Translations under genes and position numbers: made by a program
The notes under the pieces: model-generated
Databases searched by the model: none
Told to the model about the DNA's origin: nothing
The model's input: the letters and a program-made list of their open reading frames with translations, nothing else
DNA from: Myxococcota bacterium
Lineage (GTDB): Bacteria > Myxococcota_A > UBA9160 > UBA4427
DNA length: 64,000 nucleotides
Assembly: GCA_041389425.1 (NCBI GenBank)
Contig: JAWKRX010000028.1
Location: 6,388-70,387, forward strand
Direction of reading: 5' to 3'
In this document: piece after piece, positions 10,117 to 46,319 of the stretch
Layout: each line of letters starts with the position of its first letter
Position numbering within the stretch: position 1 is the stretch's first letter

Positions 10117-10965
10117 TCAGCCCGAAAGCTTCCGGATGCCCGCCATCGCCGTGTGATGCGAGAGGATCCCGCCGTCGACGGAGAGGATCTGTCCGGTCAC
10201 GAAAGCGGCGGCGTCCGACGCGAGAAAGACGACGACTGCGGCGATGTCCTCGGGCCGCCCGAGCCGCGGCGTGAGCGTGTTCTCGACGTAGACCTCGACG
10301 GCGGCCTTCGGCACGTTCGCCTCGAGCGCCGGCGTCGCGATCACGCCCGGGGCGACCGCATTGCAGCGGATGCCCTGCTTGCCGTATTGCACGGCGACGT
10401 TCTGGGTCAGCGAGCCGAGCCCCGCCTTCGACGCCGCATAGGCCGCGCGCACGACGTCGCCGGTCAGCCCCGATGCGGACGAGGTGTTGATGATCGAGCC
10501 GCCGCCCCGGCGGATCATGTGCGGAATCGCGTATTTGCAGCCCAGCATCGGCGCGCGCAGGTTGATGCGCATGTTGCGGTCCCAGACCTCGGCCGTCAGC
10601 TCGACGATCGGGCCATCCGCCGCCATCAGCGCGGGATCGGAATCGGCTGCGTTGTTGTGCAGGACGTCGATCCCGCCGAAGACGGCGACCGTCGCCTCGA
10701 TCATCGCCTCGATCGACGCCTCGTCGGCGAGGTCGACGGGCTGTGCATGCGCCCTGCCCCCGCCCGCCTCGATCTCCCCGGCGACCTTGCGGGCCCCGTC
10801 GGCGTTCAGGTCCGCGACGACGACCGCCGCCCCCGACGCCGCGAGGGCGAGGCAGGTCGCGCGGCCGATCCCCGAAGCGCCGCCGGTCACGAGGGCGACA
10901 CGCCCGGCGAGCGAAAAAGTCCCGGGCCCGATGGCTTTCGCGGGATTCGGAGCGGCACTCGTCAT
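10117..10965 (-). CDS. SDR family oxidoreductase (hydroxysteroid-dehydrogenase-like)
   Basis: TGGASGIG, NNAA and YAASK motifs; RBS AAGGA before ATG 10965. Confidence 0.9.
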   Translation of the reverse strand: MTSAAPNPAKAIGPGTFSLAGRVALVTGGASGIGRATCLALAASGAAVVVADLNADGARKVAGEIEAGGGRAHAQPVDLADEASIEAMIEATVAVFGGIDVLHNNAADSDPALMAADGPIVELTAEVWDRNMRINLRAPMLGCKYAIPHMIRRGGGSIINTSSASGLTGDVVRAAYAASKAGLGSLTQNVAVQYGKQGIRCNAVAPGVIATPALEANVPKAAVEVYVENTLTPRLGRPEDIAAVVVFLASDAAAFVTGQILSVDGGILSHHTAMAGIRKLSG

Positions 10966-10976
10966 GGCGATTCCTT

Positions 10977-12191
10977 TCAGCGCGTGACGCGAACCGGCAG
11001 ATGTTCGGGCCCGTACTCCTGCAGATGGTTCACGCACTGCCAGACGAATCCCGGCTCGAGCTCGAGCCGCGTCCGCTCCATCAGCGCGAGCGTCTCCTCG
11101 ATCACCACCCGACCGATCAAGCGCGTCAGGTGGTTGCCGAGGCAGAGGTGGGGGCCCGCGCCGAAGGCGAGATGCTCGGGGGGATCGATGCGATCGAGGC
11201 GGAACGACTCCGCGTCGGGATAGGCCGCCTCGTCGCGATTGCCCGCCGTGATGTGGCACATGATGTGCTCGCCGGCGAAGACGGGCGTGCCGGCGATCTC
11301 CGCGTCGGCCCGCGCCGTCCGCCAGAGGAAGGCGACGGGCGCCTCGTAGCGGAGCGATTCCTCGACCGCGCGGTCGATCCGGACGTCGTCGGCGCGCAGG
11401 GCCGCGACGAAGCCGGCGTCCGTCAGCAGCCGGTAGAGCAGGTTTCCGACCATGTAGGTCGCCGAGAGCGAGCCCGCGAGCATGTTGACGACGAGCGTGC
11501 GCGTGTGATGCGCGCCGATCTGCCAGCCGTCGTCACCCCGCGAACGCACCATCGAGGCGAGCAGGTCGTCGCAGGCGTCGTCCGCGATCCGGCGCTCGAT
11601 CTGCTCGTCGATGCAGGCCGTCAGCTCGGGGAAGCCGGCGGCGATGCCCTCGCCCTTTTCCGTCCGACCGGTCGGGGGCCAGCTGCTGTGGAGCAGCTCG
11701 TTACACCAGGTCATCAACCGGTCGTGCTGCTCCTCGGGAAAGCCGAGCAGGTCCGCCGAGACGGATCCGGGAATCACGGTCGCGAAATCCGCCATCAGAT
11801 CGCCCTTGCCCGCCGCGACGATCCGATCGAGCCGCTTCCGCACGGCCCGGCGCGTGAACGGCTCGGACTCCTTCGCCTTCGCGATCGTGAAAGTCCGATG
11901 GAGCACACGCCGGATCTTCGGATGGAGCGGTGCGTCGAGCTCGCCGAGGAAGCTCTCCTCGGGCGGCACGACGATGCCCGGCGCCCGCATGTCACCGACG
12001 GACGAGAAGCGCTTCGAGTCCCGAAAGACGGCGGTGACGTCCGCATGGCGCGTCACGAGCACGATGTTGTCCGCCGGCCGGCAGACCGGCTTCTCGCTCC
12101 GGATCCGCGCCATCAGCGCGAAATCCTTGGCCTTCGCCGCATCGTTCGGATCGAAGGCGAACTCCGCGTCGATCCCGGGTCGCTGGCTCAT
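10977..12191 (-). CDS. Cytochrome P450 with atypical I-helix (AGSLSAT)
   Basis: EESLR (ExxR) and heme motif FGAGPHLCLG. Confidence 0.9.
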   Translation of the reverse strand: MSQRPGIDAEFAFDPNDAAKAKDFALMARIRSEKPVCRPADNIVLVTRHADVTAVFRDSKRFSSVGDMRAPGIVVPPEESFLGELDAPLHPKIRRVLHRTFTIAKAKESEPFTRRAVRKRLDRIVAAGKGDLMADFATVIPGSVSADLLGFPEEQHDRLMTWCNELLHSSWPPTGRTEKGEGIAAGFPELTACIDEQIERRIADDACDDLLASMVRSRGDDGWQIGAHHTRTLVVNMLAGSLSATYMVGNLLYRLLTDAGFVAALRADDVRIDRAVEESLRYEAPVAFLWRTARADAEIAGTPVFAGEHIMCHITAGNRDEAAYPDAESFRLDRIDPPEHLAFGAGPHLCLGNHLTRLIGRVVIEETLALMERTRLELEPGFVWQCVNHLQEYGPEHLPVRVTR

Positions 12192-12192
12192 C

Positions 12193-13422
12193 TCATGCCC
12201 CCCCTGTCTTCGAAGCCGCGGGGCGGCCCAGCTTTCCGAACTCGATCGGCGCATGGGCGACGCCGCGCGTCGGCACGAGCTGATTGCGGACGATGCCCCC
12301 GGCGTCGACCGAATAATCGGGAGCGAGCTCGAGCAGCACCTCGAGCGCGACCCGCGTCTCGAGCCGTGCGACCGCGTTGCCGAGACAGAAATGGATGCCG
12401 TGGCCGAAGGTCCAATGGCTCTTCACCGGCCGGTCGAGATCGAGGACGTCGGGATTCGGGAAGACGGTCTCGTCGTGATTGGCCGAGCCATAGAGCAGGA
12501 GCACCTGATCGCCCTTCGGAATCGTCGCATCGCCGATCACGGCGTCGCGGGTCGTCGCCCGGGCCAGGCCCTGGACCGGAGAGACGAAGCGCAGGATCTC
12601 CTCGAGCGCCTGCGGCCAGCGCGCGGGCTCGCGGACGAGCTTGCGGCGCTCGTCCGGATACAGGCCGAGCGAAATGATCGCGTTGGCGATCATGTTCATC
12701 GTCGTGTTCTGCGACGCGTCGTGGAGCAGCGAGCAGAAGCCGCCGATCTCCTCGTCGGAGAGCTCCTTGCCCTCGCTCTGGTTGTGCAGGATCTGCGAGA
12801 TCAGGTCGTCGGATCGGTGGACCCGCCGTTCGGCGACGAGATCGGTCCAGTAGCGGCCCATCTCCGCGTAGGCCTCGAGCGCTGCGGGGCTCGTGAAATC
12901 GCCGCCGGCCAGGGTCGCCATGTTCCAGGCGAGGAACTGGTCGCGATCCGAGACCGGCAGATCGAGCAGCTCGCACATCGTCAGCGTCGGGATCTGGTGC
13001 GAGTAGTCGGGCGACGCGTCGCAGCCACCGCGATCGACGAGCCCCTCGAGGATCGCCCGCGCGCTCTGGCGGATGTGGCCCTCGAGGCGCGCGACGCGCA
13101 CGGGCGTGAGGACGCGGGCGAGGATCGCGCGCAGCTCGTCGTGGCGCGGCGGATCCATGTTGAACATGTTGGGCGGGATCAACGAGATGTCCGTGTCGAT
13201 CAGCGTTCCGCGCGCAGAGGAGAACGTCCGCCAGTCGGCGAGCGCGTCGTTCACGTCCTTCGCGCGCGAGATCATCCAGAAATGGGGCCAGACCCGACCT
13301 TCGTGCGTCGCGTGCTTGTAGGCGGGCGCGTGGTCGCGCATGACCTTGTAGTACGGATAGGGATCGTCGTAGAAACTCGGATCGAAGGGATCGAATTCGA
13401 AATCGCCGGGAAGACCACTCAT
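12193..13422 (-). CDS. Cytochrome P450 with atypical I-helix (HDASQNTT)
   Basis: MDPPRH, EEILR and FGHGIHFCLG motifs. Confidence 0.92.
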   Translation of the reverse strand: MSGLPGDFEFDPFDPSFYDDPYPYYKVMRDHAPAYKHATHEGRVWPHFWMISRAKDVNDALADWRTFSSARGTLIDTDISLIPPNMFNMDPPRHDELRAILARVLTPVRVARLEGHIRQSARAILEGLVDRGGCDASPDYSHQIPTLTMCELLDLPVSDRDQFLAWNMATLAGGDFTSPAALEAYAEMGRYWTDLVAERRVHRSDDLISQILHNQSEGKELSDEEIGGFCSLLHDASQNTTMNMIANAIISLGLYPDERRKLVREPARWPQALEEILRFVSPVQGLARATTRDAVIGDATIPKGDQVLLLYGSANHDETVFPNPDVLDLDRPVKSHWTFGHGIHFCLGNAVARLETRVALEVLLELAPDYSVDAGGIVRNQLVPTRGVAHAPIEFGKLGRPAASKTGGA

Positions 13423-13432
13423 TGCGCCACCT

Positions 13433-14671
13433 CTACTCCGTCACTGCCACGGCGGCGCACGGGGCCACCTTCGGCATCCTCAACATCACGAGAACGGCCG
13501 CCGCCACGCCGAGCACACCGATGAAGATCTGAAAGGCGAGCACATAGCTCCCCGTCTGATCCCGGATCCGCCCGACCAGGGCGAGGCCGGCCAGTGCGCC
13601 CGCCGTAATGAACGGCGCCTGGAATCCCATGGCGCGGCCGAAGTTCGCGACGCCGAAGACCTGCGCCATCAAGGCGCCCCAGACGGGCAGGATCCCGCCG
13701 GCAGCGAGGCCCATCATCGCGGCGCTCGCGATCAGAACGGGCATCTCTGGCTCCGTCGACATCACGCCGATCGCCGTGGCCGTGAGGCCGATGGCCGTCC
13801 AGAGGCCGAGATTCAGCGGGATCCGGTCGGCGAGCCAACCGAAGCCGAGCTTGCCGACGAGGCCGGCCAGCGTGAGCGCGACGACCATGTTCGATCGCGC
13901 CATGGAGTCTGCACCGAGGTCCGCGGCGAACTTCGGGACGTTCATCAGCATCGCGTTGTAGGTCCCGAGAAAGAGCGCGAGGCAGATCGAGATCGCCCAG
14001 AACGGCAGCTGACGCAGGATCTCGCTGGCGGCCGCGGGTTGAACGGGAGGCGCCGAAGCGGCCGCCGACCCGGCCTCGACGCCTTCGGGCAGCAGGCCGA
14101 GATCCCGGGGATGATTCCGGAAGAAGACGAGCAGCAGCGGCAGCGCCAGCAGCGCGACGAGTACGGCCATGAATCGGAGGGTGAGCCGCCAGCCGATGGA
14201 CTCGAAGCTCAGGCCGAAGAGCGGCGCGATCACGAGGCCCCCGATGGAGGTGCCGAGCGCGGCGATGCCCATCGCCCTGCCGCGCGAACGCGTGAACCAG
14301 CGCGAGACCGCCGCCTGGCCGACGATCGGCCCGAGCAGCGTATTCGCGATCGCGACGATGCTGCCCATCACCACCGCCCAGGCGATCCAACCCGGCGCGA
14401 GAGACAAGGCGACCAGGCCCGCGACGAGTCCACCGACACCGATCAGCATGAGGCCACGCACGGACCAGCGATCCACGAGCGGACCGACCACGAGTGGAAG
14501 CACGAATCCGATCGCGGTCATCGCCATCGCGCCCGCATTCATCTTCTCCATGCCGCAGGCGAACTCCTTCTCGACTTCCACGATCAAGAGGCCGTAGCCG
14601 TAGCTCATGAAGCCGACCATGAAGAGCTGGGCCATGAAGACGGTCGCGACGATCCACCAGCCATGGAACAT
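13433..14671 (-). CDS. MFS transporter (MCT/OFA-like)
   Basis: GWWIV start, GPLVDRWSVR, RWFTRSRGRAMG and GWLADRI motifs; about 12 hydrophobic segments. Start could lie upstream. Confidence 0.88.
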   Translation of the reverse strand: MFHGWWIVATVFMAQLFMVGFMSYGYGLLIVEVEKEFACGMEKMNAGAMAMTAIGFVLPLVVGPLVDRWSVRGLMLIGVGGLVAGLVALSLAPGWIAWAVVMGSIVAIANTLLGPIVGQAAVSRWFTRSRGRAMGIAALGTSIGGLVIAPLFGLSFESIGWRLTLRFMAVLVALLALPLLLVFFRNHPRDLGLLPEGVEAGSAAASAPPVQPAAASEILRQLPFWAISICLALFLGTYNAMLMNVPKFAADLGADSMARSNMVVALTLAGLVGKLGFGWLADRIPLNLGLWTAIGLTATAIGVMSTEPEMPVLIASAAMMGLAAGGILPVWGALMAQVFGVANFGRAMGFQAPFITAGALAGLALVGRIRDQTGSYVLAFQIFIGVLGVAAAVLVMLRMPKVAPCAAVAVTE

Positions 14672-14877
14672 GCAGTCCTGCCAATCCTTTCGTCGCGATC
14701 CGCTGCGCAGCCCATTCATCGGCTTCGAGCGCTCGCTCCATCCGCGGCGAGCCGAGCCCGGACCGCAGGGACCCCGCGATGGTACTGCGCCGGACGCGCC
14801 GCGCTGCCCCGAATCGCGCGCGCTCGGGTAAGCTGCCGGGGCGCTCCGCCCCACCGATCGCGGACGCAGGAGGGGCC

Positions 14878-17351: not shown

Positions 17352-17495
17352 GTCGTCGCTCCTCTGCCGGTTCCGATGCCCTACGCTAGCGTGCCGTGAA
17401 CCCAAGTCATGGCCCCGACCGGGCCTTCGGAGCGCCGTTTCGCACGTCCTTCGATCCGCCCATTCTTCTCGATTCCCTCTGCAGAGGAGCCCGTG

Positions 17496-18992
17496 ATGAG
17501 CCCGACCCCGAATCCGCCCCGCAGCGCCTCCACGCGCCCGCGCCCGCTCGCCGAGATCGCGCGCTGGGACGCGGAATGCGACGTCGTCGTCGTCGGCTTC
17601 GGCGCGGCAGGCGCATCGGCGGCGATCGAGGCCGCCGAGGCCGGTGGGCGCGTCATCCTCGTCGAGGTCGCCTCGGGCAGCGGCGGGACCAGCGCGATGG
17701 CGGGCGGCGACATCTATCTCGGCGGGAACGGCGGGACCGAGGTCCAGCGCGCGAACGGCTTCGTCGACGAGACCGAGGACTTCTTCCGCTACATGATGAT
17801 GGCGGGCGGGCCCGATGCCGACGAAGAACGCGTACGGATGTACGCCGACGGCGCGCTCGCGCATTTCGAATGGCTGAAGGCCCAGGGCGTGCCCTATCGG
17901 AACACCTGGATCCCCGGCAAGCCCGTCATGCCCGGGACCGGCGACTGCCTGATCCTCTCGGGCAGCGAATACGCCTGGCCCTTCAAGGAGCAGGCACGCC
18001 CCTGTCCGCGCGGCCATCTGCCCGAAGCGATCGGCGAGACGGGCGGCTTCATGCTGCTCGACAAGCTCGCGCAGCGCGTGCATGCGCTCGGCGTCGAGGT
18101 CCGCTTCCAGACCCGCGCGCGGGCGCTGGTCGTCGACGAAAAGAATCGCGTCTGCGGCCTCGTCGTCGTCACCGACGGCGAGGAGAAGGCCCTGCGCGCC
18201 CGGGGCGGCGTCGTCCTCTGCGCCGGCGGCTTCGCGCTGAACGAGGACATGCTGCGCCAGTACGTCCCGCTCCGGCCGCGGCTCGGCGCCGATGGCCTCT
18301 CCGGCGGCTACGACGACGGCTCCGGCATCCGCCTCGGGATGAGCGTCGGCGGCGCCGCCATCCACATGGACGAGATCTTCCTGACCCTGCCCTTCGACCC
18401 GCCCGAGTCCCACGTCAAGGGCATCCTCGTGAACGACAAGGGTGCGCGCTTCATCAACGAAGACGCCTACGGCGGGCGCGTCGCGCATTTCATCGCGAGC
18501 CAGATCGGCGATCGCTTTTTCCTGCTCGTCGACGACGCGATCTTCCAGCAGCCCTCGCCCTATTCGAAGATCGAGATCGCCGCCGTCGGCTCGACCTGGG
18601 AAGAGGTCGAGCGCGAGCTCGAGCTGGCGCCCGGCAGCCTCGTCGCGACCGTCGAGGTCTACAACCGCCATGCCGCCAAGGGCGAAGACCCCCTCTTCCA
18701 CAAAGACGCGAACTGGCTGAAGCCCCTCGACGAGCCGCCCTTCGCCGCCCTCGCCTGCCATCTCAAGCAGGCCTACTACCCCTTCTTCACCCTCGGCGGC
18801 CTGCGTGTGCGCCCGACGGGCGAGGTCCTCACGGTCGACGGCGATCCGATCCCCGGCCTCTACGCCGCCGGCCGCACGGCCTGCGGCCTGCCGCGCTGGG
18901 GCAAGGGCTACAGCTCGGGCATGTCGCTCGGGGATTGCACGTTCTTCGGCCGCAAGGCGGGACGCCAGGCGGCGACGACGCCACTCGACTAG
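17496..18992 (+). CDS. FAD-dependent oxidoreductase, 3-ketosteroid Delta4(5alpha)-dehydrogenase/Rv1817-like
   Basis: DVVVVGFGAAG, GGTSAMAGG, DDGSGIRLG, FTLGGL and GYSSGMSLG motifs; recalled similarity to actinobacterial Delta4-KSTD. Confidence 0.75.
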   Translation: MSPTPNPPRSASTRPRPLAEIARWDAECDVVVVGFGAAGASAAIEAAEAGGRVILVEVASGSGGTSAMAGGDIYLGGNGGTEVQRANGFVDETEDFFRYMMMAGGPDADEERVRMYADGALAHFEWLKAQGVPYRNTWIPGKPVMPGTGDCLILSGSEYAWPFKEQARPCPRGHLPEAIGETGGFMLLDKLAQRVHALGVEVRFQTRARALVVDEKNRVCGLVVVTDGEEKALRARGGVVLCAGGFALNEDMLRQYVPLRPRLGADGLSGGYDDGSGIRLGMSVGGAAIHMDEIFLTLPFDPPESHVKGILVNDKGARFINEDAYGGRVAHFIASQIGDRFFLLVDDAIFQQPSPYSKIEIAAVGSTWEEVERELELAPGSLVATVEVYNRHAAKGEDPLFHKDANWLKPLDEPPFAALACHLKQAYYPFFTLGGLRVRPTGEVLTVDGDPIPGLYAAGRTACGLPRWGKGYSSGMSLGDCTFFGRKAGRQAATTPLD

Positions 18993-19954
18993 CAGACGCG
19001 ATTCGGGACCGCCTCGCCGCGCCGCCAGGCCTCGATCGCATCGATCAGGATCCGGCCCATCCCCATGCGCGCCTCGATCGTCGCGCTCCCGATGTGCGGG
19101 ACCATGAAGACGTTCTTGAGATCGAAGTACTCCGGATGGATCGCCGGCTCGCCCGCGAAGACGTCGAGCCCCGCGGCCCAGACCTGCCCCGATTGCAGCG
19201 CGTCGATCAGTGCGCGATCCACGACGAGATCCCCGCGCGCGATGTTGACGAGAATGAGCCCGGGACGCGCCACGGCGAGCAGCGCCTGATTCACGATCCC
19301 TCGCGTCTCGTCCGTCGCAGGACAGGCCAGTACGAGGACGTCGACCTCCGCCGCGAGCGCGGCAATCGAATCCCGGTACTCGGCCCCTGCCTCGAGCGCA
19401 GGCGCGAGCCGCCTGCGATTGCAGTAGAGGATGCGCATGTCGAAGGCACGGGCGCGCGCCGCGATGCGCCGGCCGATGTCGCCCATGCCGAAGATGCCGA
19501 GCGTGCGCCCTGTGAGCTGCCGCCCGACCAGCTGGCCCGGATTCCAGCCGTGCCAGCTCCGCTGGCGGATCATCTCGATCGCCTCCTGGCCCCGGCGCGC
19601 GGCCCCGAGCATCAGGAAGAGCGCATTCTCCGCCACCGAATCCGCGAGCACGCCGGGCGTGTTGAAGACGGCGAGCCCGCGCGCGCGGGCGGCCGCGAGA
19701 TCGATGTGGTCCGTACCGACCGAATAGGTCGCGAGCACACGGACGCGTTCCGGCAGCGCCGCGATCTCGGCCTCGCGCATCGGCACGTCGAGGGAGAACG
19801 CGATGCCGTCGAATGCTTCACCGGCGGCGCGCAGCTCGGCGAGCGGATCCTTCGTCTCGGCGAAGCGCGTCTCGAAGGCCGCAGCGAAGGCCTGCTCGAC
19901 CGGCTCCAGGAAGCGTGAGGCGACGAAGAGCTTGAACCCGTCCGGGCGACTCAA
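18989..19954 (-). CDS. D-isomer-specific 2-hydroxyacid dehydrogenase (glyoxylate/hydroxypyruvate reductase-like)
   Basis: GTDHID, GIFGMGDIG, NIARG, GLDVFAGEP and PHIGSAT motifs. Confidence 0.9.
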   Translation of the reverse strand: MSRPDGFKLFVASRFLEPVEQAFAAAFETRFAETKDPLAELRAAGEAFDGIAFSLDVPMREAEIAALPERVRVLATYSVGTDHIDLAAARARGLAVFNTPGVLADSVAENALFLMLGAARRGQEAIEMIRQRSWHGWNPGQLVGRQLTGRTLGIFGMGDIGRRIAARARAFDMRILYCNRRRLAPALEAGAEYRDSIAALAAEVDVLVLACPATDETRGIVNQALLAVARPGLILVNIARGDLVVDRALIDALQSGQVWAAGLDVFAGEPAIHPEYFDLKNVFMVPHIGSATIEARMGMGRILIDAIEAWRRGEAVPNRVC

Positions 19955-29438: not shown

Positions 29439-30491
29439 TCACCCCCTCTGCGGCTCGGGCGATCCGTCCCAGGCACGCAGCTCGGCGACGATCTCCGCGA
29501 GCGCCGGGTCACCCGCCGCATCGCTCGGCAGCGGGAGCACGAACGCATCCGCGATCCCGGCGTATTTCGCGCGCAGCGCCGACGCGAGGGCGTCCCAGCG
29601 GGCGCAGACCATCAATTCGTCGAGCATCTCGTCCGAGAGCAGCGCCGCCAGCGCATCCCAGCGATTCGCGCGCACGAGGCCGTTCAGCTGCTCGCCGACC
29701 GCGCGCCAGCCGTGGAGCTCGAGCGTCGGCCAGTAGCTCGGCGTCGAGTAGAGCGTCGCGAGCAGGGCACGCTGTCGCTCGCGCTCGCCGGCGACCGCCG
29801 CCGCGTCGGGCCCGGTCGCGACGAGCGGATTCACGAAGAGGCGGACGCTGCGCGGATCCTTCCCGACTCGCGCCGCGCCGCGCGCCAGGCCCGGCCGCGC
29901 CCGTTCGCGCAGGAAGCGCGGCGAGACGTTCGTCGGATGCGTGATCAACGCGTCGGAGAGCTCGCCGGCGACGGCCGTCATGTTCGGGCCGATGCCCGCC
30001 ATGTGGATCGGGATCTCCGGATGCCCGATCGGCGGCGGCGCGACGAAGCTCTGCATGCGGGTCAGCCGATAGTGCTCGCCGCGGTGGTCGAGGCGCGTGC
30101 CGTTCTGCCAGCAATCGAAGAGCGCGCGCAGCGCCTGGACGTAGTCGCGCATGTGCGGGGCCGGCGGGCTCCAGGGCATGCCGTACTTCTCGACGATATT
30201 GGTGCGGATCAGGGGCCCGAGACCGAGATGGAAGCGGCCGCCCGAGAGCGCCTGGAGATTCCACGCCGCGACCGCGACCACCATCGGCGAGCGCGCGAAC
30301 GCGACGACCGCGCTCGTCGCGACGCGGATCTCCCGGGTCGTGGCGATCGCCGCCTGCGCCGCGAGGAATCCGTCCGTCATGACGTCGGGGACCATCAGGC
30401 CGTCGAAGCCGAGGGATTCCGCGCGGCGGGCCGCTTCGCCGACCCCCGCGAGCGGGAGCGCGAGATCGATCGATGCCCAGACCTGGACCAA
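29439..30491 (-). CDS. LLM-class oxidoreductase, probable F420-dependent (TIGR03617-like)
   Basis: AVVAFARSPM, LSGGRFHLGLG, NIVEKYGMPW and YSTPSY motifs. Confidence 0.8.
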   Translation of the reverse strand: MVQVWASIDLALPLAGVGEAARRAESLGFDGLMVPDVMTDGFLAAQAAIATTREIRVATSAVVAFARSPMVVAVAAWNLQALSGGRFHLGLGPLIRTNIVEKYGMPWSPPAPHMRDYVQALRALFDCWQNGTRLDHRGEHYRLTRMQSFVAPPPIGHPEIPIHMAGIGPNMTAVAGELSDALITHPTNVSPRFLRERARPGLARGAARVGKDPRSVRLFVNPLVATGPDAAAVAGERERQRALLATLYSTPSYWPTLELHGWRAVGEQLNGLVRANRWDALAALLSDEMLDELMVCARWDALASALRAKYAGIADAFVLPLPSDAAGDPALAEIVAELRAWDGSPEPQRG

Positions 30492-30549
30492 GCCCCGCTC
30501 CTCCTTGCCGCCGCGGAGGGCGCCGGCGGCGCCCGCGGCGGGCTGCCGC

Positions 30550-33081
30550 CTAATCGATGATCCGGCGCGCCACGAGATCTTCGTAGCGCCCGGCCGGGAG
30601 TCCGAGCAACCCGCGCAGGACGGCCTCGTTGTCCTGCCCGATCGAAGGTCCCGGCTGGATCCGGGGCCGCGTCCGGCTGCACTTCACGTACGCCCCGTAG
30701 ATCGTCTCGGAAAAGCCCAGCGGGTGCAGGACTTCCACGAACGTGCCGCGCGCCCGATGATGCGGATGGTCGAGCAGATCGGACACGTCGCAGACGGGGC
30801 TCGCCGCGACCCCGTGGCCTTGCAGCTGCGCGGCGAGGTCGTCGCGCTCGAATCCGCGGGTCCAGGCGGCGAGGCCTGCGTGCAGACGCTCGATGCCGGC
30901 GACCCGCCCGGCGCGGCTCGCCCACTCGGCGCCGAGCGCCCAGCCCGGCCGCCCCATCGCTTCGACGAGGCCCGACCACTCGGCATCCGTGAGCACCGCG
31001 ATCGCGATCCAGCGATCCGCGCCGCGGCAGGGAAAGACGCCGTGCGGCGCTCCTGCCGCGACGGGATGGCGATTGCCGAGGGGCCCGCCGACGCGGCCGT
31101 TCAGGACCTGGTCGAGGAAGGTCGGACCGACGAGCTGCATCACGCCCTCGAGCTGGGCGTAGTCGACGAGCTGGCCGCGGCCGGTGCGTTCGCGGTCGGC
31201 GAGCGCGAGCAGGATCGCGAGCGCACCGACGACGCCGCCGAGCGGATCGGCATAGGCGTTCTCCATCGCCTGCAGCCGGCCATCGGCATGGCCCGTGATG
31301 CCGTCGAGGCCGGCGAGGCTCGCGAGGCTGTTGCCGTAGGTGCGAAGACCGGCGAGCGGCCCGGAGAGCCCGGTCGACGAGAGCGATGCGAAGACGAGCC
31401 GCGGATCCCGCGCGCAGAGCGCCCCGGCGCCGAGCCCGAATCGCTCCATCACGCCGCGGCCGAAGTTCTCGATCACGACGTCCGAGCACGCGACGAGATC
31501 GCGCGCGAGGGCGCTGCCCTCCTCCGTCTTGAGGTTCAGCGTGATGCTGCGATTGCCGGCCCAGAAGGCGTGGTTCTGGATGCTGCGATCGGGGTCGGGG
31601 ATGCCGTTCCAGAACGGCGGAATCGTGCGCTGGATGTCGGGCCGCGCGCGCGATTCGATCTTGATCACGTCGGCCCCGAGGAATCCGAGCAGCTGCCCCG
31701 CCGTCGGACCGACGATCCCCCAGCCGAAGTTCGCCACGCGCAGCCCGGCCAGCGGCAGCGCCCGTTCGTCCGGGGCGAGCGCTTCGCCGTTCGCCTCGCG
31801 CGCGTCCGGGGCGAGCGCTTCGCCGTTCGCCTTGCGCGCGGCCGGTCGCAGCACGAGACGGGGCTGCGCTTCGCGCGCGGCGAAGCCCCGGTGGCCGTGC
31901 TCGCCGAGCAGCGGCGCCCCGCGACGGGGCGCGACGGGATGATCGGCGAGCCGGATCGGCGCGCCCAGGCTGCGCACCGACCCGAGCCGCGGATGCTCGA
32001 CGTCGACGAGCGCCCCGCGCGCCTCGAGATGGGGATGCTCCGCGAGGTCGGCCATCGTGTAGACGGCCGTCGCCGGACAGCCGTTCGCCTGGCAGACGGC
32101 CATGATCTCTTCCTTCGATCGCCCGCTCGCCCATTCGCCGATCAGGGCGTAGATCAGATCCGCGTTGCGTCCGCGCTCCCACATGTCGTCGAAGATCTCG
32201 GGACGCGCCCAGTCCGGATCGCCCATCGCCGCGCGCAATCCGCGCCACTGCGCCTTCTCCAGCGCGATGACGAGGACGTGGCCGTCGCGGCAGGCGACGA
32301 TGCCCGCCGGTGCCGCCAGCCCCATGCCCGCGCCGCCGGTCCGGCGATCGAAGCGGCCGTCCTGCGCATAACCGCCGACGTTCAGCGCGCCGACGAAGAG
32401 CGCCCCGAGGATCTCCGCCGAAGCGACGTCGAGCCACTGGCCGCCGCCGATGCGGTCGCGGCCGAGCAGGCAGGCGAGGCCCCAGGCCGCTGCCGCATAG
32501 CCCGCGAAGAAATCCGCGGAGAAGGTGCCGTGCTCGAGCGGCTCGCCGTCCGGCCGGCCGCAGTAGCGCGCGCCGCAGGCCGAGAAGTGATAGGCGTTGA
32601 GGTCGTAGCCCTTCCAGCCGGCGAGCGGACCGCTGCGGCCGAAGGGCGAGAGCGAGACCACCACGAGCTCGGGATGGCGCGCGCAGAGGGCCTCCTCGCA
32701 GAGACCGAAAGCAGCGAGCCGATCGTCCGGCGCGCCCGAGCCGCCCGCGACCAGGACGTCCGCCTCGCCGAGCAGTGCCTCGAGCCGCTCTCGATCCGCC
32801 GGACGATCGGGATCGAGAACGACGCTCTGCTTGTCGGTATTGAGAAAAAAGAAGGTGCCACTGGCTTCGGGATCGGGCCGATCGCCCGGAAAGGGACCGA
32901 AGCGACGGGTTTCGTCGCCGGCGCCGGGTGCTTCGATCTTCAAGACCTCGGCGCCCTGATCCGCGAAGAGCCGTGCGCAGAACGGGCCTGCGATCCCCGA
33001 GGCGAGCTCGATCACGCGGACGCCGCGAAGGGCCGCGCCCCGGCCCGCCGCCTCGGGCGCCGAAGGGACGGCGCGCGTCAT
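30550..33081 (-). CDS. Class III CoA-transferase (CaiB/BaiF), two fused domains
   Basis: Two repeats: LRGVRVIEL...GAEVLKIE and LAGLRVANF...GADVIKIES; 843 aa. Confidence 0.88.
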   Translation of the reverse strand: MTRAVPSAPEAAGRGAALRGVRVIELASGIAGPFCARLFADQGAEVLKIEAPGAGDETRRFGPFPGDRPDPEASGTFFFLNTDKQSVVLDPDRPADRERLEALLGEADVLVAGGSGAPDDRLAAFGLCEEALCARHPELVVVSLSPFGRSGPLAGWKGYDLNAYHFSACGARYCGRPDGEPLEHGTFSADFFAGYAAAAWGLACLLGRDRIGGGQWLDVASAEILGALFVGALNVGGYAQDGRFDRRTGGAGMGLAAPAGIVACRDGHVLVIALEKAQWRGLRAAMGDPDWARPEIFDDMWERGRNADLIYALIGEWASGRSKEEIMAVCQANGCPATAVYTMADLAEHPHLEARGALVDVEHPRLGSVRSLGAPIRLADHPVAPRRGAPLLGEHGHRGFAAREAQPRLVLRPAARKANGEALAPDAREANGEALAPDERALPLAGLRVANFGWGIVGPTAGQLLGFLGADVIKIESRARPDIQRTIPPFWNGIPDPDRSIQNHAFWAGNRSITLNLKTEEGSALARDLVACSDVVIENFGRGVMERFGLGAGALCARDPRLVFASLSSTGLSGPLAGLRTYGNSLASLAGLDGITGHADGRLQAMENAYADPLGGVVGALAILLALADRERTGRGQLVDYAQLEGVMQLVGPTFLDQVLNGRVGGPLGNRHPVAAGAPHGVFPCRGADRWIAIAVLTDAEWSGLVEAMGRPGWALGAEWASRAGRVAGIERLHAGLAAWTRGFERDDLAAQLQGHGVAASPVCDVSDLLDHPHHRARGTFVEVLHPLGFSETIYGAYVKCSRTRPRIQPGPSIGQDNEAVLRGLLGLPAGRYEDLVARRIID
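31768..31832 (-). repeat. 36-bp-period in-frame duplication (ANGEALAPD x2) in the CoA-transferase linker
   Basis: gtccggggcgagcgcttcgccgttcgcct at 31768 and 31804. Confidence 0.85.
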
Positions 33082-44828: not shown

Positions 44829-46064
44829 TCAGGGCGCCGGCTTGAGCGAATACCGGACCGGCAGGTGCTTGATCCCGCCGACGAGGTTCGAGCGCAGCCG
44901 CTCGACCGGGCCCGTCAGCTCGATCTCGTCGATGCGCGGCAGCAGGTACTTGAAGGCGAACTCGAGCTCGAGGCGCGCGAGATGCGCGCCGGCACAGAAA
45001 TGCTCGCCGATTCCGAAGGCCAGATGGCGGTTCGGATCCCGCCCGACGTCGAAGGCGTAGGGCCGGTCGAAGACCTCCTCGTCGCGGTTCGCGGAGGGAT
45101 AGAAGAGCGCGAGGTGGTCCCCCTCGCGAATCTTGCGGCCGCGCAGGACGGTGTCCCGGGAAGCGGTGCGCGCGAAATGGATGATCGGGCTGGTCCAGCG
45201 CAGGACCTCCTCGATCGCCGAGCCGAGCAGCGCGGGGTTGCGCTGCACGCGCTGCAGCTCGTCCTGGTTCTCGATGAAGGCGAGCATGCCGCCCGTCGTC
45301 GCGTTGCGGGTCGTCTCGTTGCCGGCGACGACGATGATCTGGCAGTAGGCGAGCACGTCGATCGGCGCGAGCTTCTCGCCGTCGACCTCGGCATGGGCGA
45401 AGAGCGAGATCAGATCGTCCTTCGGCTTCTTCTTCCGCTCCTCGACGAGCGCGGCGAAGTACTGGAACGTCTCGAAGATCGCCTTCTGCGCGGCTTCCGG
45501 GCCGGCGACGCCGTCGACGGCGTACTCCGGATCGTCGGCGCCGATCGTGCGGTTCGTCCAGTCGAAGAGCAGCTTCCAATCCGACTCGGGCACCCCGAGC
45601 AGCCAGGCGATGACGGCGATCGGCAGCGGCGCCGAGACCTGCTCGACGAAATCGACGGAGCGCCCGCCCTGCTCGAGCATGTCGTCGACGATCTGCTTCG
45701 CGATCCGGTCGATGTCGGCGTGGATCTTCTTGAGCGCGCGGGGCGTGAAGCGCGAGCTGATGATGCGGCGGTAGGCGCGATGCTTCGGCGGATCCATCTC
45801 GATGATCGTCGGCGGCGGCCGGAAATCGCTCCGGTCGGTCGGCGTGATGACGAGGCGCGGGCTCGAGAGGAAGATGTCGGGGTTCTTCCCGACCTCCATG
45901 ATGTCCGCATGCTTCGTCACCGCCCAGAACGGCACCGGGCCGTCCTCGAAGCGATGGACGGGATCGTTCGCGCGCAGCTCGCGCCAGTGTTCGTGGGGAT
46001 AGCCATGGGCCGCGATGTGGGCCGGATGGATGATCGACGGGAGCTCGGGGGCGGCGGTGCTCAT
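44829..46064 (-). CDS. Cytochrome P450, canonical (CYP125/124/142-like steroid or lipid oxidase)
   Basis: FWAVTKHAD, MDPPKH, VAGNETTRNA, EEVLRW and FGIGEHFCAGAHLAR motifs. Confidence 0.9.
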   Translation of the reverse strand: MSTAAPELPSIIHPAHIAAHGYPHEHWRELRANDPVHRFEDGPVPFWAVTKHADIMEVGKNPDIFLSSPRLVITPTDRSDFRPPPTIIEMDPPKHRAYRRIISSRFTPRALKKIHADIDRIAKQIVDDMLEQGGRSVDFVEQVSAPLPIAVIAWLLGVPESDWKLLFDWTNRTIGADDPEYAVDGVAGPEAAQKAIFETFQYFAALVEERKKKPKDDLISLFAHAEVDGEKLAPIDVLAYCQIIVVAGNETTRNATTGGMLAFIENQDELQRVQRNPALLGSAIEEVLRWTSPIIHFARTASRDTVLRGRKIREGDHLALFYPSANRDEEVFDRPYAFDVGRDPNRHLAFGIGEHFCAGAHLARLELEFAFKYLLPRIDEIELTGPVERLRSNLVGGIKHLPVRYSLKPAP

Positions 46065-46319
46065 GCGAGGGCCTCTCGAAAAGGGATCGGTCGGACGCGC
46101 GCGGTCACTCTAACAGAGGCAGAACGCGGCCACAGCGGCGCGCGAGAACGAGGGGGGCGGATGCCGCCGCGCGCCGATCCGACTACGCTGCGCGCGAGCC
46201 CGGGACGCATCGGGTCCGGCGCGCGATCGACGCGCGGCGGAGATCGGGTCGCCGCCCGCGCATGATGCGCCGGCGGCGATCGCCGGAGTGCATTCAGGAT
46301 CGAAGACGAGAGCCGGCGA

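Follow-up and report, generated by a model that had tools for sequence, protein, structure and literature searches.

Two neighbouring cytochrome P450s without the I-helix acid residue in a conserved P450-P450-SDR module of a Myxococcota bacterium

The acid-alcohol pair within the I-helix motif (A/G)-G-x-(D/E)-(T/S) is typical of the cytochrome P450 (P450) superfamily but not obligatory. CYP51, whose I-helix is of the A-G-Q-H-T-S type with a His at the acid position, is an acid-less P450 that uses O2 and redox partners for a multistep oxidation ending in C-C cleavage, while the CYP152 peroxygenases carry in place of the pair an Arg-Pro that binds the substrate carboxylate. P450s without the acid are an already known phenomenon and are not rare. 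Here we describe two such enzymes, P450-A and P450-B, which are encoded side by side in a stretch of 64,000 nucleotides (the window; assembly GCA_041389425.1, contig JAWKRX010000028.1, positions 6,388 to 70,387, or C28:6388-70387) from a ~6 Mb Myxococcota metagenome-assembled genome (MAG) with 70% GC.

The closest functional analogy is CYP114 (EtCYP114) of the bacterial gibberellin operon. In all CYP114 members, the acid position is occupied by Ala or Val, and the enzyme acts on a diterpenoid acid, ent-kaurenoic acid, in an operon with other P450s and a short-chain dehydrogenase/reductase (SDR); the A261D exchange limits it to hydroxylation, indicating that the missing acid is required for the chemistry beyond that step (PMC10293830). 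P450-A resembles CYP114 in that a hydrophobic residue, here Leu, occupies the acid position family-wide and in that its operon includes an SDR. However, CYP114 keeps the Thr next to its Ala or Val, whereas P450-A combines Leu with Ser and P450-B has a polar Asn, and the gibberellin operon is biosynthetic. CYP51, with its His, also differs from the Leu of P450-A and the Asn of P450-B and is an unrelated family. The Arg-Pro of CYP152 is absent from both I-helices, which have Leu-Ser and Asn-Thr there, and the pair of the SyoA/CYP255-type I-helix is Gln-Glu (PMC11842817).

I-helix motifs, conservation and family relations

A first-pass annotation had reported two P450 open reading frames (ORFs) on the minus strand of the window and had read both as lacking the I-helix acid. 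Both ORFs are present (Table 1), and the reading of their I-helices holds in all but one detail. P450-A has AGSLS where P450s carry AGxET. In HMMER alignments with solved P450s, its segment VNMLAGSLSATYMV aligns without a gap on LLVVAGNETTRNAI of CYP125MRCA and on AGHETT of CYP107L2, which places Leu242 at the acid position and Ser243, replacing the Thr, at the alcohol position, as had been read from AGSLSAT. An invariant Asn236 lies seven residues ahead of Ser243. P450-B has ASQNT at the AGxET position, and its segment LLHDASQNTTMNMI aligns, again gapless, on LLVVAGNETTRNAI of CYP124A1, LLIAGHETTVNLI of Vdh and MVTAGNDTVTGML of CYP130. The Gly is replaced by Ser237 and the acid by Asn239, while Thr240 is kept. 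These exchanges agree with the earlier reading of HDASQNTT; the His-Asp that it called extra does not, as His234-Asp235 replace two hydrophobic residues and are not an insertion. With no gap anywhere in the I-helix alignments, the register is certain for both motifs, and because neither I-helix contains a D/E followed by T/S anywhere, realignment cannot restore the acid-alcohol pair in P450-A or P450-B. The ExxR motif (EESLRY in P450-A, EEILRF in P450-B) and the haem Cys are intact, as previously noted, with canonical Cys loops (FGAGPHLCLG and FGHGIHFCLG, respectively), and the third P450 of the window (44829-46109) is indeed canonical, reading AGNETT.

Membership of the superfamily is clear from the Pfam scores in Table 1, both above the PF00067 cut-off of 22.8 bits. 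The AlphaFold2 (AF2) models are P450 folds (pLDDT 81.6 for P450-A and 80.4 for P450-B; pTM 0.85), and in a Foldseek search the P450-A model reached a TM-score of ~0.8 to many P450 structures. The modelled I-helix of P450-A breaks at residues 242-243. We also noticed that the B-C loop of P450-A (residues 63-91, window 11919-12005, SSVGDMRAPG...LGELDAPLHP) is near-invariant across phyla while being the part modelled with the lowest confidence (pLDDT below 50); possible roles are those of a flexible lid or of a surface for interaction.

To describe conservation, we aligned each protein with 120 database orthologues (n = 121 including the query), which are 59-100% identical to the query for P450-A and 68-96% for P450-B. 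The P450-A motif N-x-L-x-G-S-L-S is invariant (121/121). In the P450-B motif H-D-A-S-Q-N-T-T, the Q and both T residues are found in 121/121 sequences, D in 120/121, N in 119/121 and H in 115/121. Because both motifs are invariant or nearly so, the missing acid is a fixed, selected trait of each family rather than decay, and reading the genes as pseudogenes is ruled out by the same conservation.

When all P450s of the genome (~52 genes) were aligned to one profile, seven (13%) had no acid: P450-A, P450-B, a P450-A paralogue on contig C19 (GGFST), three genes reading AGVHT, AGHGT and SGAST, and a CYP51-like gene reading GGFHT. Two further P450s lack only the alcohol, and the remainder are canonical. 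The C19 paralogue (C19:5010-6404; L061:5253-6353) shares 39% identity with P450-A, scores 337 bits against the family-A profile and reads VGGFSTG; a tblastn search of 14 kb around it found no P450-B-like or SDR-like gene.

By the 40% identity convention of CYP nomenclature, applied here to P450s with solved structures, P450-A and P450-B fall outside every P450 family that has a solved structure. Among solved P450s, the nearest to P450-A are CYP125MRCA, EryK, CYP142 and CYP109E1 (23-29% identity), and its Foldseek alignments with CYP125/CYP142 show 24-28% identity, under the convention. Although CYP125/CYP142 and EryK are its best sequence and fold matches (TM 0.80-0.83, E ~1e-21), their I-helices are all of the AGNETT type, unlike that of P450-A, and nothing ties P450-A to sterols. 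P450-B matches Mycobacterium tuberculosis CYP130 (Rv1256c) at 140 of 367 aligned positions (38%), which is borderline under the 40% convention. CYP130 and Vdh (CYP107BR1) have the same class I fold and length as P450-B, are collinear with it and give its best PDB scores (225-227 bits), but their G-G-N-D-T and A-G-H-E-T are canonical where P450-B has A-S-Q-N-T after His-Asp. NCBIfam returned no family above cut-off for P450-A, P450-B or the DUF6282 and SnoaL proteins encoded downstream. With identities to solved P450s of at most 29% and 38%, neither enzyme falls in a characterised monooxygenase family, a placement that the first-pass annotation had considered. The A-S-Q-N-T of P450-B may resemble the A-S-Q-x-N-T of animal CYP7/CYP8, a tentative lead; all matches of a PDB search with the I-helix alone were class I P450s of bacteria.

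Searching 1.84 billion cluster representatives placed P450-A in a wider clade whose members share 36-54% identity with the query. In this clade, the acid position is mostly uncharged, with Leu, Ile, Val or Met and also Gln or Ser, the replacing residue being most often hydrophobic; the alcohol position holds Ser or Thr, and the Asn is kept seven residues before it. At ~35% identity to P450-A and below, the canonical AGNETT predominates. No member of the wider clade has a structure.

The P450-P450-SDR module and its distribution

The first-pass annotation had called the two P450 genes tandem. In the sense of a duplication this does not stand: P450-A and P450-B are distinct families and among the least similar P450 pairs of the genome. 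The family-A profile scores P450-B at 125 bits, below many other P450s of the genome, and the nearest paralogues of P450-B there have canonical I-helices. Adjacent P450 genes also occur elsewhere in this genome (C7:187110/189447, C15:70273/72808 and C15:48725/51171).

We scanned one genome per species and found 56 loci with a P450-A relative, 50 of which hold a near-full P450-A orthologue. The hosts are Myxococcota MAGs, Sphingomonas formosensis, Sphingomonas jatrophae, Croceicoccus estronivorus, one Caulobacteraceae MAG and Actinomycetota MAGs, the last including Acidimicrobiia and Frankiaceae. A P450-B orthologue lies within the flank in 39 of the 50 loci, directly upstream and in the same orientation in ~35, and all nine genomes without P450-B beside P450-A carry a P450-B orthologue elsewhere (55-75% identity). 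An SDR orthologue (51-98% identity) is near P450-A in 35 of the 50. Among 301 evenly drawn Myxococcota genomes, P450-A was present in seven and P450-B in nine; the bearers are the same few lineages, mainly the genus of the window itself. The pairwise identity matrices of P450-A and P450-B over 36 loci correlate with r = 0.77, and the lowest identities across the three phyla are 53% for P450-A and 57% for P450-B.

Flanking genes vary between lineages, and only the trio of P450-B, P450-A and SDR is constant. The shared loci, the co-occurrence and the correlated identities show that this trio is the conserved core, inherited and transferred together, and that P450-A and P450-B are a co-inherited functional pair within a three-gene module. 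The module has spread through Myxococcota, Alphaproteobacteria (Sphingomonadales and Caulobacteraceae) and Actinomycetota, where it is usually found beside carboxylate transport genes and genes of the CoA/beta-oxidation type.

Individual loci depart from the common arrangement. In one Myxococcota genome (G148), the order is an SDR-like gene, P450-B, the SDR orthologue, a P450-A-like gene and two enoyl-CoA hydratase (ECH) genes. Two MAGs that hold the loci L006 and L007 contain a second locus each (L034 and L049) with a paralogous B-A pair (72-73% and 59% identity) that adjoins a second PRK07121-like flavoprotein (43-44% identity), which suggests a duplication or a second acquisition of the entire unit. 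In an Acidimicrobiaceae MAG, the P450-A match (L055:8001-9593) spans 1593 nt instead of ~1200 and the P450-B match starts 800 nt upstream; this P450-A copy could be rearranged, frameshifted or insertion-bearing. PLSDB gave no match at E<=1e-40 that would indicate plasmid carriage.

Among 150 representatives, no fusion of P450-B with P450-A was found. The long matches of the P450-A family include fusions of a P450 with a beta-lactamase-fold domain and with an isopentenyl transferase, one protein with a weak squalene-hopene-cyclase match and one with P450 as its sole Pfam match. The metagenomic protein P0244 (1008 aa) is a P450-A relative with 46% identity, the I-helix LASQST and a C-terminal beta-lactamase-fold (serine hydrolase) domain, and P0374 is the isopentenyl-transferase-P450 fusion.

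Operon, neighbouring genes and redox partners

In the window, the trio is part of an operon of six co-directional genes with very short gaps, in the order of Table 1. The stop codon of the major facilitator superfamily (MFS) transporter gene is separated from the P450-B ATG by 10 nt, and the junction between P450-B and P450-A is a single nucleotide, TGA-G-ATG, which indicates that P450-A is translationally coupled to P450-B. Because it lies 1 nt past the P450-B TGA and the orthologues are all ~404 aa long, the ATG at 12191 (MSQRPG...) is most likely the P450-A start rather than the upstream ATG at 12254. P450-A is followed after 11 nt by the SDR, with the ribosome-binding site AAGGA and an ATG at 10965; the next gaps are 59 nt (SDR to DUF6282) and 20 nt (DUF6282 to SnoaL_4).

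Table 1. Genes and motifs of the operon, with positions in the window.
Feature	Position	Strand	Remarks
MFS transporter	13433..14854	-	operon gene 1, start codon uncertain; Pfam MFS_1
P450-B, 409 aa	12193..13422	-	haem-thiolate P450; Pfam p450 95 bits
I-helix of P450-B SLLHDASQNTTMNMI, residues 231-245	12688..12732	-	gapless PDB alignment
Cys-ligand loop of P450-B, FGHGIHFCLG	12379..12408	-	motif
P450-A, 404 aa	10977..12191	-	haem-thiolate P450; Pfam p450 60 bits
I-helix of P450-A VNMLAGSLSATYMV, residues 235-248	11448..11489	-	gapless PDB alignment
Cys-ligand loop of P450-A, FGAGPHLCLG	11136..11165	-	motif
SDR, 282 aa	10117..10965	-	third member of the trio; Pfam adh_short_C2
DUF6282 protein, 286 aa	9197..10057	-	Pfam PF19799, 181 bits
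SnoaL_4 (NTF2-like) protein, 142 aa	8748..9176	-	last gene of the operon; Pfam SnoaL_4 82 bits

The transporter resembles monocarboxylate (lactate, oxalate/formate) transporters, with all its NCBIfam matches below cut-off, and MFS orthologues (41-89% identity) lie upstream of P450-B in many loci. The best solved relative of the SDR is PtmO8 (PDB 5f1p; 253 bits over 257 residues compared with ~157 for generic SDRs), an SDR of platensimycin/platencin biosynthesis in Streptomyces that acts on diterpenoid intermediates; this substrate is not transferable to the SDR of the module. DUF6282 orthologues also match PF04909 (Amidohydro_2), and the invariant residues H13-x-H15, H156, H179 and D239 form an HxH...H...H...D metal-ligand pattern, so the protein is probably a metal-dependent hydrolase of the amidohydrolase superfamily. 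No PDB relative of DUF6282 was found by sequence, nor a significant one by profile, and a literature search on DUF6282 and PtmO8 returned nothing usable. The SnoaL_4 protein has weak PDB matches to Rv3472, LinA and steroid delta-isomerase.

In other lineages, P450-A is followed by an antisense SDR and a 208-aa degenerate SDR-like ORF and then by the SDR orthologue and a SnoaL_2 protein. The short ORF (L032:9979-10605 in S. jatrophae, and at the same position in L001 and L002) is 207-208 aa long, has no Pfam match and looks like a degenerate, truncated SDR; it lies between P450-A and the SDR orthologue, co-oriented with a full SDR, and may be a pseudo-subunit of a hetero-oligomeric SDR.

Around the operon, genes for an SDR, an Amidohydro_2 protein and an enoyl-CoA hydratase converge on it in the window, which elsewhere is dense in Rieske oxygenases, acyl-CoA dehydrogenases and SDRs and also encodes a Baeyer-Villiger monooxygenase (BVMO) and an F420-type luciferase-like monooxygenase (LLM) oxidoreductase. 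In S. jatrophae, the pair follows genes for a CoA ligase, an Amidohydro_2 protein, an acyl-CoA dehydrogenase and two hydratases (ECH), and the flanks in S. formosensis encode a BVMO, an SDR, an amine-oxidase-like flavoprotein, an MFS transporter and an amidase. Such neighbours suggest that a carboxylic acid is catabolised, and an alicyclic or terpenoid one would be plausible. The LLM protein (29439-30683, minus strand) matches TIGR03617, an F420-dependent LLM family, at 321 bits against a cut-off of 278, a hint that this Myxococcota bacterium uses F420.

In many Myxococcota loci, a PRK07121-family FAD-binding protein (window 17409-18992, plus strand; 741 bits, above cut-off; 77-90% identity) and a D-2-hydroxyacid dehydrogenase (18989-19954, minus strand; 67-82%) are syntenic with the operon, and a bactofilin gene and an AcrB-type pump lie alongside. 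We considered a steroid pathway. Its steroid-specific form is weak because the syntenic flavoprotein is not KstD, as the PRK07121 protein scores 148 bits against the KstD cut-off of 789, and the KshA-like Rieske gene lies 26 kb away; a weak possibility is left. A literature search found no link of the pair to the known oec/edc genes of the oestrogen degrader C. estronivorus.

No ferredoxin is encoded in the operon or its flanks. The first-pass annotation had remarked on this absence in the operon, and the remark is correct, yet it says nothing about these two enzymes, as the same is the norm for the P450s of this genome: there are only two Fer4_15 and seven Fer2 matches for the ~52 P450s, an extreme P450-to-ferredoxin ratio, and one P450 alone, the CYP51-like gene on contig C62, adjoins a ferredoxin. 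Because ferredoxins are scarce genome-wide and rarely beside P450s, an operon without one is uninformative. By their Cys loops and other core motifs, both enzymes look like ordinary ferredoxin-dependent class I P450s. The C62 gene (G000:C62:2285-5523) has the CYP51-type I-helix GGFHTS and the best Pfam P450 score of the genome (205 bits) and is directly followed by the Fer4_15 ferredoxin (C62:5338-5523); together they may be a sterol 14-demethylase cassette.

Proposed chemistry, alternatives and significance

That the trio acts in one pathway is likely. In the explanation we favour, the module would carry out successive, O2- and ferredoxin-dependent oxidation of one imported carboxylic acid, probably alicyclic or terpenoid. 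P450-B would hydroxylate, using either a re-routed proton relay or polar anchoring of the substrate, and the SDR would convert the new alcohol to a carbonyl. P450-A would follow with a proton-starved oxidation other than plain hydroxylation, be it over-oxidation, rearrangement or C-C cleavage, as in CYP114/CYP51; in the lineage of the window only, further processing of the product would fall to the DUF6282 hydrolase and the SnoaL-like protein. With side-chain orientations taken from helix periodicity, Leu242 of P450-A would remove the relay at the acid position while Ser243 and the invariant Asn236 would stay haem-facing. In P450-B, Asp235 stands five residues ahead of Thr240, the position of the substrate-contacting Val247 of P450cam. 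It lies with His234 one helix turn before the Asn239-Thr240 pair, and together with His234 and Asn239 it could hold a polar group of the substrate in place or redirect protons. The complete sequence of hydroxylation by P450-B, carbonyl formation by the SDR and follow-up oxidation by P450-A is a tentative proposal, worth preferring but short of probable, and genuinely non-hydroxylating chemistry by P450-A, argued from the analogy with CYP114, is taken singly rather unlikely. The suggestion of the first-pass annotation that these P450s do non-canonical chemistry is plausible but no more: the loss of the acid is selected, fits altered oxygen activation and has a precedent in CYP114.

Several observations weigh against the proposal. 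The order P450-B, SDR, P450-A is deduced from gene content. EryF and CYP7A1 are natural P450s without the acid or the alcohol and yet are plain hydroxylases, and water-mediated proton delivery could proceed normally with Ser243 and Asn239 in place. CYP114 depends on a dedicated ferredoxin from a neighbouring gene, whereas the operon of P450-A and P450-B and its flanks encode none, and the 60 best PDB matches of either enzyme include no CYP114 entry. In about a fifth of the loci P450-A is not adjacent to P450-B, and DUF6282 and SnoaL_4 are confined to the window's lineage of loci, outside the conserved core.

The main rival is that both enzymes are ordinary regiospecific hydroxylases of one catabolic pathway, their odd I-helices reflecting substrate fit only. 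Protons would then travel through water, through Ser243/Asn236 in P450-A and Asn239/Asp235/Thr240 in P450-B, or through a substrate hydroxyl or carboxylate as in EryF. We regard this reading, and with it such a proton route, as quite possible, though not as probable. It agrees with the otherwise canonical P450 hallmarks, with an alcohol position kept as Ser in P450-A and Thr in P450-B, with the 13% share of acid-less P450s in the genome, which makes the deviation not rare, and with the many oxygenases, SDRs and beta-oxidation genes in the neighbourhood, a typical setting for catabolism. It does not readily account for a Leu found in 121/121 members of family A and for the mostly hydrophobic, uncharged residues in the relatives, which go beyond what substrate fit would demand, and CYP114 is a precedent for such a residue deciding the mechanism. 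Chemistry free of redox partners, either as an H2O2-driven peroxygenase or as an isomerase or dehydratase of peroxides (CYP152-, CYP74-, CYP5- or CYP8-like), might be suspected from an acid missing in both enzymes and an operon without ferredoxin or reductase, and the first-pass annotation had named peroxygenation and isomerisation. This we consider very unlikely: Cys loops of the standard class I form FGxGxHxCLG, without insertion, and a retained alcohol residue, Thr240 in the case of P450-B, disfavour peroxide chemistry, the core motifs are those of ordinary class I P450s, neither I-helix has the Arg-Pro (CYP152) or Gln-Glu (SyoA/CYP255-type) pair, and a neighbourhood without ferredoxin is the rule among the P450s of this genome.

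Two further possibilities concern the pair and the module as a whole. P450-A and P450-B might form a physical hetero-complex in which one partner is non-catalytic or relays electrons, as they always occur in the same genome, are translationally coupled, have correlated identity matrices and are unusually highly conserved, including the invariant B-C loop of P450-A that was modelled with low confidence. However, the 150 representatives contain no B-A fusion, the genes are unlinked in ~20% of loci, both proteins keep full catalytic cores and consecutive pathway steps explain the co-occurrence equally, which makes a hetero-complex very improbable. Whether the module is biosynthetic or catabolic is a separate question, compatible with the other readings. 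A role in the tailoring and export of a secondary metabolite, as opposed to nutrient degradation, is improbable. In its favour, the module has enzyme types that are typical of tailoring (SnoaL-like proteins, SDRs and P450s), PtmO8 as the nearest solved SDR belongs to a biosynthetic pathway and the MFS transporter could export, but no polyketide synthase, non-ribosomal peptide synthetase or terpene synthase is present in the annotated parts of the window or the related loci, the neighbours are CoA ligase, acyl-CoA dehydrogenase, ECH, BVMO, Rieske oxygenases and amidohydrolases, and the flanks differ by lineage around a constant trio.

A bolder form of the favoured explanation would have the trio act on a terpenoid- or steroid-like carboxylic acid as a new catabolic device, present in three phyla, for ring opening or rearrangement; we think this rather doubtful. 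In such a device, P450-B would install the hydroxyl, the SDR would make the ketone, and the proton-starved, Leu-bearing P450-A would cleave or rearrange the carbon skeleton by means of a long-lived species, ferric-peroxo or over-oxidising, much as CYP51/CYP17 do in their third step or CYP114 in its semipinacol step. If this were true, the wider clade with Asn-x-L-x-G-G-(hydrophobic)-(S/T) would be a whole family of 'second-stage' P450s.

In summary, the window encodes a widespread, strongly conserved and uncharacterised P450-P450-SDR module; no member of the P450-A or P450-B family has a solved structure or an assigned function. Because acid-less P450s are not rare (13% in this genome), its novelty lies in new members of a known phenomenon. 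P450s without the acid-alcohol pair have been mined for peroxygenases, ring contraction and C-C coupling, and the module offers two defined targets with hundreds of orthologues, each with a strictly conserved replacement motif. The three culturable carriers, S. formosensis, S. jatrophae and C. estronivorus, make it directly testable. If both enzymes are plain hydroxylases, they would be two more cases in which the acid is dispensable. If the Leu of P450-A is mechanistically required, like the Ala of CYP114, the principle would reach a large clade, and a catabolic reaction common among soil and wastewater bacteria would come to light.

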